Positions 44,187 to 51,005 of a stretch of DNA of 64,000 nt are shown here, piece by piece. Position 1 is the stretch's first letter, and each line of letters begins with the position of its first letter. The notes beneath the pieces are model-generated. The model was given only the letters and a program-made list of their open reading frames with translations, had not been told where the DNA came from and searched no databases. Location of the stretch: contig OZ239628.1 in the NCBI GenBank assembly GCA_965195345.1, positions 1,711,553-1,775,552 of the forward strand. The letters run 5' to 3'. This DNA comes from an uncultured Thiomicrospira sp. (GTDB taxonomy: Bacteria > Pseudomonadota > Gammaproteobacteria > CAKMZV01). The position numbers and the translations under genes are program-made.

Positions 44187-44680
44187 AAATACACCAAATA
44201 ATTTTATCTAGATTAAATCTTTAACGATCAACCGTAGCATAGCAACACCCTCTAAAATTTAGGGGGTGAATTATAAATCTTGATTATGGAATGAAAGCCC
44301 CTATTTATATTAAAATTTTCAATGGGTTGCTTTGCTAAATTTGCATTATCTGGCGTATTAAATAAGTGCATAAATGCACCAGAGCAGTTTAAAGAAAGAT
44401 ATCGATGAATTGATGAAGACTCGGGTTGGAATAGAAAATGTAAACTGGAAGAGTGATTTTGCAACCGATTCAAAAAGAACTGAACGAAAAAATCAGAGAG
44501 CTGATGAATACTCAATTTTTAGATAGATAATGAACATGGTAATGGTAATATCAAACTAACCAATGCCAAACAGCTTAAGAAGCAAATCTGCTCTATCTTA
44601 ACATGTGCACTGAGTGCCCCAAAGGAACTGTTGTAGATTTTGTTAAACGGAAGGAAGGAATATGTTAAGGATACAGTAAT

Positions 44681-44824
44681 ATCCAACGATCTATTGCTTG
44701 CACCATATCTTAAGGTACTCATAACGGTTCACTTAAGAGTTTCTTCTTTTTTGGAAACGAGGCAACGTTAGAATACATATAATATATTTAATACCAGTTT
44801 AATACAATTCATGCGGAGTAAACT
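44681..44824 (+). promoter_or_regulatory. conserved leader/promoter region of the paralog array (copy A)
   Basis: about 145 bp, about 80% identical to 45652-45800, both ending in the GGAG RBS and ATG of a paralog; conserved ACGTTAGAAT(A/G)CATAT core. Confidence 0.35.
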
Positions 44825-45490
44825 ATGAATGAAAAAAAACAATCTTTGTTAGGTGGTGGAGAAGAATTAAGAGCAGTTTGTACTCCTGACTCAGGAGCTG
44901 CAGGAGTAAATGTCACCATAACAGCGACGCCTGCGTCTGAACCCTCAGGATTCCACAATCTAACCATTTTAGGCGGAGTAATAACATCATTAGAAACAGG
45001 GTTAGCCGAAAGATTAGATAATGTAGAAGCTGTGGAAGATGCAAAAATTTATACTACAACGCTCCCTAATGATCTTGATGAAGGACACTACGATATTGTC
45101 ATAGATTTAATATCACACGTCCCAGGTGCAGAAGAGTCACGCTTTACGATTAAGGCCAGTTATGAGGTTGAGGCGCATAAACCGGGTAAAAATCCTGAGG
45201 TAAGAACAATCATCCCATCGACAGTTTCGCAAGCTGAATTCAATACAAAAGTATTCTCTGCGCAGGGAACTAATTTTGATAAGTTAAATGTTCAGCGTGG
45301 TGCTCAAATAATTTCTGAAACTGGATTAACCAGATTAAGCATAACGCCTCAAAGTGATACAAGATGCCTTATACGTGTACTCAATCCATCTGGCACTCCT
45401 CCTTCGGAGGGTGTTTGGGCAATGTTCATGTACAGCAGCGGTGGAGAACCTATTTCATCAACATCTAGGATTCGAGTGGTGAAAGAATAG
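44825..45490 (+). CDS. paralog 1 of a 221-aa protein family of unknown function (no signal peptide, Ser-rich tail with terminal acidic residues)
   Basis: MNEKKQSLLGGGEE...; 75-80% identical to the three downstream copies; GGAG RBS 7 nt upstream. Confidence 0.8.
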   Translation: MNEKKQSLLGGGEELRAVCTPDSGAAGVNVTITATPASEPSGFHNLTILGGVITSLETGLAERLDNVEAVEDAKIYTTTLPNDLDEGHYDIVIDLISHVPGAEESRFTIKASYEVEAHKPGKNPEVRTIIPSTVSQAEFNTKVFSAQGTNFDKLNVQRGAQIISETGLTRLSITPQSDTRCLIRVLNPSGTPPSEGVWAMFMYSSGGEPISSTSRIRVVKE

Positions 45491-45566
45491 TAAGCGCACC
45501 AAATGTCATCATATAATCCAGTATTCTAAGAAACATTTCTCACTCATAGATTATATAAATCCAATT

Positions 45567-47886: not shown

Positions 47887-47960
47887 TAGGCACACCAAAT
47901 GTATCGTACAGTCCAGTATTCTCAGAAAAATTTTTCACTCATACTTATATAAATCCAATT

Positions 47961-50900
47961 ATGAAAAAAGTTAGCGAAGACGCGTCACAGTATAACTTGT
48001 CACCGCCTATTCCGCCAGGCGAAAAAATCTTATCTGCTGATTCATTCTGTGCACTTGTTCCAGAATTTGACCCTAAGAATCCTCAATCCATTACAAGTTG
48101 GCAATGTTTTTCATCTGAAGTAGGCGAAAAAAACTTCAACTTAGGAGCAAGCACTACTATTGCCGATAAAACCGAGATTTGGGCTTCATCTTTGCAGAGG
48201 GTATCTGACCCAACAAATGGCAATGAAGTTGCTTGTGTATTGGGCAAAGATTCAGCTTACGTCATATCATCGAAAGACACAAATAGTCCCCCAACATTCA
48301 CGAAAAAAAAACGAACAGACTCTTCGCAAGGCACTGCTACTTTTTTTTCAAAATTTGTGTTGGATACAAGCGAGCAAGAAAATAGCCAAGTTATACATAC
48401 AGATCGACTCTTATACTGTATGTTCTCCGATGGAACTAACACGATAACAGTGCATGATGTTGATGACCCCTCATTTCACTTCATCATAGAACTGCCTTTT
48501 AAAATTGTCGATTTATGCGCAGTACTTCAGATAGCCAGCGGGAAAAAGAATTATTGGGTTTGGGTTCTCCAATCCCAAGATCGTCCATGTTTTTGTTTTA
48601 TAGAACATAGCCGCATGATTAATGCTGGCAAAACCGGTTCGTCCCTTAAAGGCAGCGACTTAATACTACATGCATACGCTGATGAATATGCAAATTTTTA
48701 TGTTAGGGATGTACTTATTGGTAGTTACTACTTTGACTCTGATAATCCTGGTAGCCAACAAATAATAGTCTTATCAAATAGCAGCCTCGTTGCTCTTGTG
48801 CATATGTTGTCTTTAGACAGTCAAGGAAAGGTGCAAGAAGTAACACCAGTATTTAACCAAACCTTTAAAATCACTTTCTTTGGTCTCCCAACACCTATGC
48901 AACTGGAGAATTATTTTTCAAAGGGCACAAACTTTCGACCAGGAAGCCTCCAACATCTCATTGCCCCAAATGGAAATCATTCGTTTTATGTAAATGCATA
49001 CGGTCAAGTTTACAACAGTGTAACGTACTGCGCAGCAACCACACATATGCTTGTATCTTTCAATCGTAAGAGCAAAACTTTCTCGTCTCCAGGCTATTAT
49101 ACATATGCCGTTCAGTGCAAACCAATTTGGCCATCTAAGAATCCGTCGCCAAGCGTCGAGCCCGTAGTCGGCATTGTCAATCAATTGGCTGTTGCTGAAG
49201 CAACAGTAAATATCTCGGCTCAAGATAGCAAAGGGGTGTACTCTGGATTTCGGTTATTTTATTCACTTGCTGCAATGACAGCTATTTATGATCCGACACC
49301 TGACCTGTCGGTTTATATAACTTGTGCATTTTGTAATTATCCGGAATTCCAAAATATAGCTTTTGGTTCGTCTTTTATTAAACTGGCTGTCAATAGTGCA
49401 GGAGACTATTACTTGCCACAAGGGTCTAACCCCTTTCCAATTTCTGATAAAGGGCGTTGGATAGATAACTATACTCATCTAGGAATGTTGCAGTTAGATG
49501 ACTCATTTTTTAAGAGTAATAATATATTTAATACGCATTCGGCAGGAGTGCCAGGTGCAGTATTTGACTATACTAAAAGATACTCTCAAGGCTGTTTTAT
49601 GAGCTGTGGAGTAGATTTCATGGGTAAAAGTCTCGTACTAGGAAATCCCCATCTATCTCTATATGATAAGTCAATCCAGCCTCTTGGATTTTACCGCTCT
49701 ATGCCGTTTCAATCCGAAGCGCAGAAAATCATGCCTTTGTTGACAATCGCAAATTCAAATACAGTTGTTAAGGGAATATCAAAATCCACGCATTCTACAT
49801 GGCATGCTGGTTACAATGCTAATGTACAGTACCATGGGGTAATAGCAACAGCCTCTGCTCATTTTGGGCAAAGTTGGGGCGGTTCTAAGATGCACATGTC
49901 GAGTGATCAAAAAACAATCTCTTTACACGTAACCTCTGGAGTTGCCGAATCTGACCTAGTACACACATACAATTCTCTATTTTACCTTTGGGATTACCCA
50001 ATATACCAAAAAATAACTTCAGACGCTCCCCTTGGGGAGATTACTGTCCTAATCCCTCATGGCTTTAGCGAGGCAATTTTAGATGCAACAGATCCTCGCT
50101 TAGGGCACGTTCAAGATTACGAAATAGGTCAAATACTCACTTATCTGGATTCTGAGAAACCTGGGTATTTAGAAAAAAACCTGTGGTTCACGAGAGAAAC
50201 TATTACATGCACCAGCGATGCTCAATCTGGAGGAAGTTCTGTAATATACTCAAAGCAAAATTCCACACACTTAGAGGATGGCAAATCCACAATGGATGGA
50301 ATGAATGCAGGTGGCAGCATCGGATTCCATTATGGTCCAGTGTCAGCAACAGTGAGTGCTTTTTACTCAAAAAATAATGTGGAAAATTCTGCAACAAGCA
50401 CTTTAAAATCCGAAGATTTCACAGTGAGCTTTCACTCAGGAGTCATAGAAGAAGAAGGATATGAATATGCTGTAACACCATTAATATATGGTCACAAAGA
50501 CAATAATATGTTAATGATAAACTGCGAAGTACAATTGATAGGACCACTGTGGAAAAACCACTTTCAGACTCCTGAAATTATAATGATGCGTACTTACCCA
50601 GCTGCTAAAGTGTTGCGGTTAAAACATTTTACACGGAGTATTCGCTTCAGTGAAAATGCAGATCAGACAGTTGATATTAGCTTGCACTTATTCTCAAACT
50701 CATATAGTCCTTCTGCAAATATTGTTTGCAATGTCTACGCAGGTATGGCATTTTATATAAGCGAGAATAAACCTCCAGTTACAACCAAATTGAAATTACT
50801 AGGCACAGTGAAAGTTGCCTCACTTGATGGGTTGCAACGATATATTGCGGTATTAAAGAATCAACATTTACAGAAAAACACCCATATTACTGTTGAAGTT

Positions 50901-51005
50901 TTTCATGATGATGCTGAGCAGATAAATGCAAAATACTACTGGGGAGTATATCCTTTCAGTGCCTCTATAGCTATGTTAAAGGAAACTGAGGAGGCATTGC
51001 CATAA
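47961..51005 (+). CDS. large protein (1014 aa) of unknown function, candidate toxin/effector partner of the paralog family
   Basis: Long uninterrupted ORF 74 nt after paralog 4. No signal peptide or TM helix. Rich in N/S/T/Y/G with Ser/Thr-rich alternating hydrophobic-polar stretches in the C-terminal third. Acidic C-terminus ...KETEEALP. Confidence 0.8.
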   Translation: MKKVSEDASQYNLSPPIPPGEKILSADSFCALVPEFDPKNPQSITSWQCFSSEVGEKNFNLGASTTIADKTEIWASSLQRVSDPTNGNEVACVLGKDSAYVISSKDTNSPPTFTKKKRTDSSQGTATFFSKFVLDTSEQENSQVIHTDRLLYCMFSDGTNTITVHDVDDPSFHFIIELPFKIVDLCAVLQIASGKKNYWVWVLQSQDRPCFCFIEHSRMINAGKTGSSLKGSDLILHAYADEYANFYVRDVLIGSYYFDSDNPGSQQIIVLSNSSLVALVHMLSLDSQGKVQEVTPVFNQTFKITFFGLPTPMQLENYFSKGTNFRPGSLQHLIAPNGNHSFYVNAYGQVYNSVTYCAATTHMLVSFNRKSKTFSSPGYYTYAVQCKPIWPSKNPSPSVEPVVGIVNQLAVAEATVNISAQDSKGVYSGFRLFYSLAAMTAIYDPTPDLSVYITCAFCNYPEFQNIAFGSSFIKLAVNSAGDYYLPQGSNPFPISDKGRWIDNYTHLGMLQLDDSFFKSNNIFNTHSAGVPGAVFDYTKRYSQGCFMSCGVDFMGKSLVLGNPHLSLYDKSIQPLGFYRSMPFQSEAQKIMPLLTIANSNTVVKGISKSTHSTWHAGYNANVQYHGVIATASAHFGQSWGGSKMHMSSDQKTISLHVTSGVAESDLVHTYNSLFYLWDYPIYQKITSDAPLGEITVLIPHGFSEAILDATDPRLGHVQDYEIGQILTYLDSEKPGYLEKNLWFTRETITCTSDAQSGGSSVIYSKQNSTHLEDGKSTMDGMNAGGSIGFHYGPVSATVSAFYSKNNVENSATSTLKSEDFTVSFHSGVIEEEGYEYAVTPLIYGHKDNNMLMINCEVQLIGPLWKNHFQTPEIIMMRTYPAAKVLRLKHFTRSIRFSENADQTVDISLHLFSNSYSPSANIVCNVYAGMAFYISENKPPVTTKLKLLGTVKVASLDGLQRYIAVLKNQHLQKNTHITVEVFHDDAEQINAKYYWGVYPFSASIAMLKETEEALP

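Follow-up and report, generated by a model that had tools for sequence, protein, structure and literature searches.

A leaderless, possibly toxin-like two-component module of a widespread undescribed family, with four copies of its small partner

The window, meaning here the whole stretch of 64,000 nucleotides that was analyzed, contains four paralogous genes for proteins of about 221 aa followed by a single gene for a protein of 1014 aa, and the question raised by this locus is whether these five genes belong together and, if so, what their products might do. Our reading, offered tentatively, is that they could form a leaderless two-component toxin-like module belonging to a widespread undescribed family. 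The genes are as follows.

44825-45490, plus strand: small partner copy 1, 221 aa, two Ig-like domains in tandem, probably of IPT/TIG type
45801-46469, plus strand: small partner copy 2, 222 aa, HMM E=3.6e-18, 3 nt and 1 aa different from copy 3
46511-47179, plus strand: small partner copy 3, 222 aa, duplicated very recently from copy 2
47221-47886, plus strand: small partner copy 4, 221 aa, most divergent copy, with Cys181 changed to Phe
47961-51005, plus strand: large protein ORF, 1014 aa, without signal peptide, from a family of 235 representatives

A sequence-only reading of this DNA had described four co-oriented small paralogs with the large ORF starting 74 nt further on, which the ORF coordinates bear out, and had taken the block for an accessory insertion. 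The module does lie between the two halves of a DMSP/methyl-group catabolic cluster, but its GC, GC3, and codon usage look native and do not mark it as recently foreign, and an accessory insertion is plausible from position only. Neither mobile-element genes nor meaningful flanking repeats turned up around the module, and there are no secretion or lysis genes near it.

Conservation of the gene pair

An exhaustive HMMER search for large-family members, in which cluster representatives were counted, returned 235 representatives at E<=1e-3 and 74 at E<=1e-30, with the family occurring in Streptomyces, Nonomuraea, Acidobacteriota, Elioraea, Bordetella, Verminephrobacter, and a cyanobacterium-like contig. 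In every fetched locus of the six closest relatives looked up, the large gene is adjoined by one to five small homologs (one in L002, one in L003, five in L004, two in L005/L006, two in L008, and one, apparently split, in L007), and one small gene also adjoins the large gene of Bordetella genomosp. 5 (L016), a member found by motif scan. In the high-GC and cyanobacterium-like clade the neighbor is a clear IPT/TIG protein, as seen in L001, L017, and L027. A small-family HMM built without any window sequence scored the four window copies at E values from 4e-18 to 2e-15. The small gene lies upstream of the large one in half of the loci, and downstream or on both sides elsewhere; the stop of the large gene and the start of the small gene overlap or directly adjoin each other in L004 and L007, which suggests that the two are co-translated. 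Where several small copies recur, they can be highly divergent, as the five paralogs of L004 are only 29-37% identical and the two of L005 28%.

The small and large genes are, in fact, a real conserved two-gene module whose pairing is not incidental, and its components are co-encoded and co-inherited as those of binary toxins are. The earlier idea of a conserved, toxin-like two-component module gains from this result, as the two families are neighbors in genomes unrelated to one another, frequently with more than one small copy, and a pore-forming reading fits best. No curated family was matched when the window proteins were compared to Pfam, NCBIfam, and PDB sequences, and copy 2 and the large protein found no match in PADLOC or PHROGs; the large/small family is undescribed by the models of Pfam, NCBIfam, PADLOC, and PHROGs or by any paper that we found.

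Domains of the two proteins

The sequence-only reading had reported the lack of an N-terminal signal correctly, but its statement that no motif could be assigned no longer holds: profile and structure work identified a propeller of the FG-GAP type, an Ig domain resembling CARDB, and Ig-like domains that are probably of the IPT/TIG type. Each small protein consists of two such Ig-like domains in tandem and has an Ig-like beta-sandwich fold. Their model is poor (pLDDT 50) and looks like filamin, FN3, and MG-type Ig domains; the small-family profile has its best match in the surface glycan-binding protein SGBP-B. Pfam TIG (PF01833) did not match the window copies at E<=1; it matched two of the 15 close family members (best 3.8e-4) and the positional counterparts in L001, L017, and L027 (7e-8, 1e-13, and 1e-10, respectively), while the small-family HMM recognized the TIG protein of L001 at 4e-5 within the fetched loci, or 1.6e-3 for a search space of one million. 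Inspection by eye revealed no hydrophobic N-terminal signal in the small proteins, and the residues conserved across the family are kept in all four window copies. Two cysteines had been reported at about positions 19 and 190, with the second lost in copy 4; the first position and the loss (to Phe) are correct, but the second cysteine is at position 181, and neither is conserved among the small-protein homologs of other genomes.

The large protein is divided as follows.

47988-49130, plus strand: N-terminal 7-bladed beta-propeller of FG-GAP/integrin-alpha type, about aa 10-390
49593-50630, plus strand: central all-beta module, about aa 545-890, where conservation within the family is highest, no Pfam match
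50640-50960, plus strand: C-terminal CARDB-like Ig domain, about aa 894-1000, pLDDT above 90

Its AlphaFold2 model, based on 59 homologs, has a pLDDT of 74 and a pTM of 0.68, and the top Foldseek matches are whole integrin alpha ectodomains (propeller and Ig-like domains) at E 1e-8. The family carries a 7-bladed propeller with FG-GAP repeats, although recognizable FG-GAP/Ca-binding motifs are absent in Pfam from the window protein itself. The CARDB-like domain was recognized by the large-family profile, which matches the structure 2kut_A at 1.5e-9, and Pfam CARDB was found in 13 of 43 family members (best 5e-11); the window protein is linked to CARDB through the family profile only. The large protein and its close relatives showed no hydrophobic signal at the N-terminus. 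Distant members of the family, with Sec signal peptides and T9SS sorting domains, are clearly secreted, which points to an extracellular role in the wider family.

Ser-rich tails with terminal acidic residues had been proposed as a feature common to these proteins, and as a possible Dot/Icm type IVB signal if the host were a member of the Legionellales. The tail of the small proteins, however, consists of the final beta-strand in the second Ig-like domain followed by one to three acidic residues, and because the ends of the small homologs vary (T, I, Q, NE, AD, and others), such tails are not a conserved signal. The C-termini of the homologs of both families vary and are mostly not acidic, no dot/icm genes were present among the window ORFs scanned, and these ORFs point neither to Legionellales nor to a secretion system. 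Streptomyces, Nonomuraea, Acidobacteriota, the cyanobacterium-like lineage, Bordetella, and Verminephrobacter are not known to carry Dot/Icm. With tails that are not conserved and a family that spans phyla not known for that system, the Dot/Icm idea is unsupported.

Two long hairpins and the proposed function

The central module of the large protein contains two features that bear on a pore-forming function.

49746-49943, plus strand: long amphipathic beta-hairpin 1, aa 596-661, hydrophobic/polar alternation family-wide, W614 and Y/W639 conserved
50238-50435, plus strand: long amphipathic beta-hairpin 2, aa 760-825, tip 781-791 / 794-802 alternating family-wide, Y802 conserved

In the AlphaFold2 model, strands 593-625/630-661 and 760-791/794-825 form these hairpins, each about 65 residues long and with low-confidence tips. 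Both are Ser/Thr-rich, with an S/T/N/G/H content of 48-52% compared to 33% overall, and both show a family-wide hydrophobic/polar alternation at the tip, with conserved aromatics; such alternation is also found in ordinary exposed beta-sheets. When a profile of hairpin 2 (A8) was compared to the PDB, 27 of the 28 matches were beta-barrel pore-forming toxins, including parasporin-2 (1.1e-4), Cry23Aa1 (2.6e-3), Vip4Da1 (6.5e-3), and epsilon toxin (0.04), whose four alignments fall on the toxins' own Ser/Thr-rich hairpin segments, and also anthrax PA; however, PDB matches of the hairpin profiles carry 7-10 bits of compositional bias and come from toxin families (aerolysin type and PA type) that are not considered homologous to each other, so that they may reflect a shared hairpin composition and not common ancestry. 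The profile of hairpin 1 (A12) matched mainly pore-forming toxins, at E values of only 0.14-1.3. Three independent profiles agreed in matching aerolysin-type toxins within one region of the large protein. The likeness of the hairpins does not establish the large protein as a member of the aerolysin family: Pfam ETX_MTX2, Aerolysin, MACPF, and other toxin models, searched one by one at E<=1, recovered none of 43 large-family members, and the Pfam scan of the window protein gave no ETX_MTX2 or Aerolysin match.

Taken together with the conserved partner, the hairpin signature makes it conceivable, at somewhat less than even chances, that the module is a leaderless pore-former of the beta-barrel type, assisted by an accessory Ig-like partner that has diversified into several copies. 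A target surface would be bound by the propeller and/or the Ig domain, the protomers would oligomerize, and the two hairpins would insert side by side to give a beta-barrel pore to which each protomer contributes four strands, like MACPF/CDC and gasdermin pores, where aerolysin has two. The 221-aa proteins are probably accessory subunits that bind the large protein and would serve it either as targeting adaptors or as assembly chaperones/keepers, and retention of several divergent copies might provide alternative specificities. Lacking a signal peptide, the proteins would be released by lysis or some other route; many large toxins are leaderless.

Known systems resemble the module in part. Aerolysin / ETX-MTX2 toxins (parasporin-2/Cry46, Cry23Aa/Mpp23, epsilon toxin, and natterin-like Dln1) share with the large protein an all-beta module with a Ser/Thr-rich amphipathic hairpin, which judging from the model is elongated in both, and they too have accessory binding domains, but they have one hairpin per protomer where the window protein has two long ones, and that protein is about 1000 aa in size, with its 7-bladed propeller and CARDB domain. 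Binary pesticidal toxins (Cry23Aa/Cry37Aa and Gpp34/Tpp35) and pleurotolysin A/B consist of a large pore-former and a small beta-sandwich partner encoded side by side and, as here, without signal peptide; the small partner of our module, however, is a tandem-domain protein of probable IPT/TIG type, unrelated to Cry37, aegerolysin, or Gpp34, and is present in one to five divergent copies. Cry23Aa1, matched by the profiles, belongs to this group. MACPF/CDC and gasdermin proteins share two membrane hairpins per protomer with what we propose, and the hairpin-1 profile weakly matches the MACPF toxin Mpf2Ba1 (residues 179-227, E 0.24), yet the large protein matches the MACPF/CDC core neither in sequence nor in fold, and its hairpins are predicted to be pre-formed rather than helical bundles. 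Secretins (GspD, InvG, and pIV) were aligned by Foldseek over about 280 columns of long beta-hairpins at E ~1e-4; with TM-scores of 0.05-0.12, and no N-domains, secretin motifs, or signal peptide in the large protein, this likeness is one of long hairpins only.

Alternatives and the history of the array

The integrin matches raise the possibility of a non-lytic, integrin-like surface or extracellular assembly, in which propeller and Ig domain would be an adhesin or ligand-binding head, the hairpins a rigid stalk or oligomerization element, and the small tandem-Ig proteins stalk/fiber subunits or co-receptors. The combination of FG-GAP, CARDB, and a T9SS tail in the distant branch is indeed a typical surface-protein architecture, and the Ig-domain and SGBP-B likenesses of the small protein point the same way. 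We nonetheless regard this explanation as unlikely: close-branch proteins of both kinds lack a signal peptide, anchor, or sorting motif (the large protein also differs from integrin alpha-type FG-GAP propeller proteins and PL11 lyases in having no transmembrane anchor and a central hairpin module without integrin counterpart), conservation in the family peaks in the hairpin module and not in the binding domains, and the hairpin profile specifically matched the insertion hairpins of pore-formers.

The absence of signal peptides throughout the close branch would also suit an intracellular abortive-infection/anti-phage module, whose large protein would perforate the cell's own membrane from inside when triggered, in a gasdermin-like manner, with the small Ig-like proteins as sensors, decoys, or inhibitors. 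Multi-copy, fast-diverging partners would fit an arms race, one relative adjoins a Cas12a CRISPR locus and another transposase and resolvase genes, and the window also contains a SIR2-STAND gene at a distance of 27 kb. Most neighborhoods of relatives, however, are made of housekeeping genes and are not defense islands, no protease or other trigger gene is conserved beside the pair, the distant relatives are secreted, and no family member turned up in viral contigs with a scan motif that recovered 25 of 25 true members in genome and metagenome collections. This result and the lack of PADLOC or PHROGs matches for any protein tested speak against a known anti-phage defense system, and the intracellular module as a whole seems to us quite improbable. 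The pattern of two to five divergent small paralogs beside a single large gene, together with the suggested translational coupling in L004 and L007, could alternatively mean that an antibacterial toxin is accompanied by arrayed immunity proteins, as in polymorphic toxin loci. That class, with a variable C-terminal toxin domain and a downstream immunity gene, is not matched here, given the conserved CARDB-like C-terminus and small genes lying upstream, downstream, or on both sides, and a toxin-immunity arrangement in general is very improbable, as the small proteins also lack the signal peptide or transmembrane segment needed to meet an incoming pore-former, and tandem Ig-like domains are not known as a usual immunity-protein fold.

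A bolder form of the pore-former idea, and a more doubtful one, would make this locus the founding example of an unrecognized, phylum-spanning superfamily of leaderless beta-barrel pore-formers, with two insertion hairpins per protomer mounted on a beta-propeller and swappable tandem-Ig partners that genomes expand and diversify to set the target range; were it correct, the window would have caught a partner expansion in progress. The parts of the array that bear on its history are these.

44638-44780, plus strand: module upstream leader, likely promoter/5'UTR region, duplicated at 45609-45750
45609-45750, plus strand: second leader copy, 5' of copy 2, 79-85% identical to the first
45491-45576, plus strand: duplication junction, repeating the spacer upstream of the large gene and the first ~10 nt of that gene

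A promoter consensus scan of the leader at 44638-44780 remained at chance level, and no promoter was therefore assigned in it; a GGAG Shine-Dalgarno is read about 8 nt 5' of the ATG at 44825. The DNA repeats across the four small genes are spaced 976/710/710 nt. In the repeat comparison, the junction has ATGGAAAAAG compared to ATGAAAAAAG at the large-gene start at 47961, and since a spacer and a remnant of the large-gene start thus follow copy 1, this copy came from a tandem duplication of a unit comprising leader, small gene, spacer, and the 5' end of the large gene. Protein identity among the four paralogs, previously put at 75-99%, is 69-99.5%, the lower figure being that of copies 2 and 4, and dN/dS among them is about 1, indistinguishable from neutral drift.

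Organisation and origin of the gene array

The module consists of four genes for tandem Ig-like small proteins (probably of IPT/TIG type), referred to as copies 1 to 4, and one large gene, arranged as follows.

Features of the array (window coordinates, strand, description)
44825-45490, plus strand: small copy 1, ORF of 221 aa
45801-46469, plus strand: small copy 2, ORF of 222 aa
46511-47179, plus strand: small copy 3, ORF of 222 aa
47221-47886, plus strand: small copy 4, ORF of 221 aa
47961-51005, plus strand: large gene, ORF of 1014 aa, beginning 74 nt past copy 4
45609-45750, plus strand: second copy of the leader, about 143 nt, matching the leader at 44638-44780

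These ORFs are as the sequence-only reading had described them, although the identity among the paralogs, put there at 75-99%, goes down to 69%. Copies 2 and 3 are 3 nt apart in sequence, while the remaining pairs share 69-77% protein identity with dS values of 0.13-0.19, and no further copy of the small or the large gene was found in the window. The two cysteines that had been placed at about positions 19 and 190 are found at 19 and at 181, and neither is conserved in homologs. The Ser-rich acidic tails, proposed as a shared feature, are not conserved in homologs either, the tail of the small proteins being the last Ig-like strand followed by 1-3 acidic residues; because of this, and because the hosts of the family span several phyla, the suggestion of a Dot/Icm type IVB signal is unsupported.

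The DNA repeats of the small-gene array are spaced by 976, 710 and 710 nt, and the 310 nt 3' of copy 1 form a duplication junction. Its opening ~85 nt duplicate the spacer found upstream of the large gene, together with the first ~10 nt of that gene (ATGGAAAAAG at 45567 versus ATGAAAAAAG at 47961). As the junction holds the spacer, the large-gene start and the second leader, the ancestral order was leader-small-spacer-large. A 976-nt tandem duplication extended just into the large gene, and 710-nt units (CDS plus 41-nt spacer) joined the array afterwards, the newest of them very recent. Antisense ORFs of 68-95 aa lie within each small copy (45758-46024, 46447-46734 and 47157-47363, minus strand); they recur because the DNA itself repeats and are without independent support.

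Among the window copies, dN/dS is 0.7-1.2 overall, 0.5-0.9 in the N-terminal domain and ~1.3 in the C-terminal domain (domain 2). Positive selection on these paralogs was considered and rejected, since no value, including that of domain 2, is significantly above 1, so that relaxed constraint and diversifying selection are indistinguishable. The residues conserved family-wide are retained in all four copies. Promoter and terminator scans returned counts at chance level, and Rfam gave no match in the window.

The large-protein family and its small partners

The module proteins have no match in Pfam, NCBIfam or PDB sequences, and copy 2 and the large protein, searched against PADLOC and PHROGs, have none there. 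A word-indexed search with the large protein returned only itself and one 914-aa relative, and a 59-sequence profile did not extend this result; an exhaustive HMMER search was needed to recover the family. With a profile made of the large protein and the 914-aa relative, that search yielded 235 cluster representatives at E<=1e-3 (74 of them at E<=1e-30), in most cases of 900-1100 aa. A 98-nt degenerate DNA motif, designed by hand from the invariant block D..G.S...G.P...Q...P[FY], retrieved 17 genome and 8 metagenome loci, all 25 of which are true family members (198-1032 bits), and no viral contig matched it. Hosts identified by name are Streptomyces (6 loci), Nonomuraea (2), Jatrophihabitans, Elioraea rosea, Bordetella genomosp. 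5 and Verminephrobacter, along with metagenome-assembled genomes of Burkholderiaceae, Acidobacteriota, Actinomycetota and a deltaproteobacterium. The contig of the first relative found bears the cyanobacterial marker genes OCP, FRP and HpsJ. With its nearest relatives the window protein shares 29-37% identity.

Co-occurrence of the two families elsewhere, which the sequence-only reading had suggested searching for, was borne out: each of the six nearest relatives looked up has at least one small-family gene adjoining the large gene, and all the loci listed here are paired.

Small-family genes at loci of other genomes
L002: one upstream of the large gene
L003: one upstream of the large gene
L004: three downstream of the large gene and two on the opposite strand
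L005/L006: one upstream and one downstream of the large gene
L007: one downstream of the large gene, apparently split
L008: two downstream of the large gene
L016 (Bordetella genomosp. 5), a member from the motif scan: one upstream

An HMM built from non-window small genes only gives the four copies of the window E-values of 4e-18 to 2e-15 (search space of one million). At L004 and L007 the large-gene stop overlaps or abuts the small-gene start. The small paralogs of L004 are only 29-37% identical to one another and the L005 pair 28%; elsewhere, therefore, the possession of several distinct partners is a stable trait, and not merely the recent accident that it might seem here. As to their surroundings, the L005 relative (9192-15053) is the immediate neighbour of a Cas12a-type CRISPR-Cas locus (Cas1, Cas2, Cas4 and a REC1/RuvC protein), and that of L004 adjoins transposase and resolvase genes and a series of small unassigned genes.

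In a high-GC/cyanobacterium-like clade the partner can be recognised as an IPT/TIG protein (Pfam E 7e-8, 1e-13 and 1e-10). Comparison of one of the window small proteins with the TIG protein of L001, a locus of this clade, was not significant by pairwise BLASTP or hhalign, the small family being linked to it through the family HMM only. One T9SS-type distant member was examined and has no TIG neighbour, and the small-family HMM matches none of the large-family representatives, which gives no fusion ("Rosetta stone") evidence. A longer conserved operon is seen in the clade, at L001 (8204-14244) and also at L011, L017 and L024, in the order TIG protein (~171-197 aa), ~225-aa protein, ~115-aa protein, large protein and ~460-aa protein; Pfam matches none of the ~225-, ~115- and ~460-aa proteins. 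It may be that the system includes components beyond the two in the window.

A candidate pore-former and the alternatives

The AlphaFold2 model of the large protein, built with 59 homologs, reached a pLDDT of 74 and a pTM of 0.68, with low confidence at aa ~394-542. Its central module (aa ~545-890), where conservation across the family is highest and no Pfam model matches, is predicted to be all-beta and to contain two very long strand pairs, 593-625/630-661 (hairpin 1, aa 596-661) and 760-791/794-825 (hairpin 2, aa 760-825). A CARDB-like Ig domain follows at aa ~894-1000 (2kut_A at 1.5e-9; 13 of 43 members match Pfam CARDB). In both hairpins S, T, N, G and H are abundant (48-52%, versus 33% overall), and at both tips hydrophobic/polar alternation is strict family-wide, with conserved aromatics W614, Y/W639 and Y802.

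Profiles of the whole length and of the central domain each matched, weakly and at the same place, aerolysin-type toxins (Cry23Aa1, epsilon toxin, parasporin-2). When a 44-sequence profile of aa 728-866 was searched against the PDB, 27 of 28 matches were beta-barrel pore-forming toxins, the best being parasporin-2 (1.1e-4), Cry23Aa1 (2.6e-3), Vip4Da1 (6.5e-3) and epsilon toxin (0.04), and the weaker ones including a BinA-like protein, C2-II, anthrax protective antigen (PA) and natterin-like proteins. The four printed alignments, with parasporin-2, Cry23Aa1, Vip4Da1 and epsilon toxin, cover the Ser/Thr-rich hairpin segments of these toxins, and the PA-type matches fall on residues 267-331 of full-length PA, its pore-forming loop. 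With the hairpin 1 profile, similar matches came up at non-significant E-values (0.14-1.3), among them residues 179-227 of the MACPF toxin Mpf2Ba1; the toxin matches of the hairpin profiles carry strong compositional bias. Because the matches span toxin families not considered homologous, they point to a shared hairpin type and not to membership of one family. No toxin Pfam model matched the 43 members scanned, and on account of this failed sequence-model test the large family is not classed with the aerolysin family.

Our preferred reading, a serious possibility that we stop short of calling probable, is that of a leaderless two-component module in which the large protein would be a beta-barrel pore-former, each protomer contributing two insertion hairpins to the pore, and the tandem-Ig protein would act as an accessory subunit with diversified copies. 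Whole-model fold searches are dominated by the propeller and list integrins, MG domains and, at poor TM-scores, secretins, toxins being absent from these lists; beside the toxin-type hairpins, a non-lytic integrin-like binding or structural assembly seems unlikely to us. As to export, no close-branch member (the leaderless nearest relatives) has a signal peptide, their large proteins opening directly with a conserved N-terminal motif. In many of the distant members a Sec signal peptide precedes a related motif, and a type IX (T9SS) sorting domain, typical of Bacteroidota, occurs in 10 of the 43 scanned; the wider family therefore acts extracellularly, at least in part. An intracellular abortive-infection module appears quite improbable, and least probable of the alternatives is a toxin-immunity array, as which the row of small genes might also be read. 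To leave the cell, proteins of the leaderless branch would depend on lysis or on some other export route, as do many large toxins without a leader, such as Cry proteins, Tc toxins, pneumolysin and the large clostridial toxins. A leaderless sub-branch (proteins P0070-P0075, P0088, P0092, P0094 and others) has a conserved basic motif, RHRPGR.(T/S)RM, at its start, preceding the DPL.GNY.L motif; it might be a site of processing or a signal for targeting.

The central module, the small family and their pairing are described in none of Pfam 2025, NCBIfam 2026, PADLOC and PHROGs, and full-text literature searches found nothing on this architecture, the small family or the pairing. Should the pore-forming reading be true, the module would represent a new architectural class of beta-barrel pore-forming toxins (propeller, two hairpins, CARDB domain and a separate tandem-Ig partner), with members in Streptomyces, a cyanobacterium-like contig, Acidobacteriota and Proteobacteria and a secreted form in the proteins with a T9SS sorting domain. 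It would also assign a role to several hundred gene pairs now called "hypothetical", and provide a natural system in which to study accessory-subunit retargeting of a pore-former as well as fresh scaffolds for pesticidal or nanopore uses. Even without pore activity, a gene pair so tightly conserved marks out an uncharacterised two-protein machine open to direct testing.

Genomic setting in the window

The module splits a methyl-group/DMSP catabolic cluster that lies entirely on the opposite strand.

Halves of the DMSP/methyl-group catabolic cluster
42027-44186, minus strand: upstream of the module, with a DmdA/GcvT paralog and an MTHFR-like gene
51353-58826, minus strand: downstream of the module, with an M24 hydrolase (creatinase/ectoine-hydrolase-like), an acyl-CoA ligase, DmdA (527 bits, above cut-off), an acyl-CoA dehydrogenase and a betaine/choline ABC transporter

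The cluster suggests that the host is a marine-type heterotroph. That the block interrupts it, as had been noticed, holds; the five module genes, however, have GC, GC3 and codon usage typical of the window, and no mobile-element genes were found around them. As flanking direct repeats or att sites, only an exact 14-mer, CACCCTCTAAAATT (44246-44259 and 51145-51158, spacing 6899 nt), and a shared 10-mer, TCGATGAATT, at nearly the same spacing, came into question; both were rejected, the flank alignment being without extended similarity, and are probably due to chance. With native-like composition and neither mobile genes nor meaningful repeats, "insertion" is thus a positional reading only. No secretion system was found among the window ORFs scanned.

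Elsewhere the window carries the chromosomal housekeeping genes purB, recD, secA, hemL, pepN and zapE. Five sizeable ORFs (280-610 aa, one or two libraries tried for each) had no NCBIfam match at E<=1e-20 (4195-5502, 5525-6721 and 21157-22605), no NCBIfam or Pfam match at E<=1e-5 (41095-41937) or no Pfam match at E<=1e-5 (60500-62332). A dimethylglycine/sarcosine-dehydrogenase-like gene with DAO and GCV_T domains (35015-37429, plus strand) is a local compositional outlier, with GC of 0.46, GC3 of 0.40 and the lowest codon score of the window, against a background of ~0.40 GC and ~0.33 GC3. Finally, an 811-aa protein encoded amid housekeeping genes (16714-19149, plus strand) combines a SIR2-like domain (1.4e-26) with a "novel STAND NTPase 5" domain (1.6e-13), an architecture typical for anti-phage defence genes.
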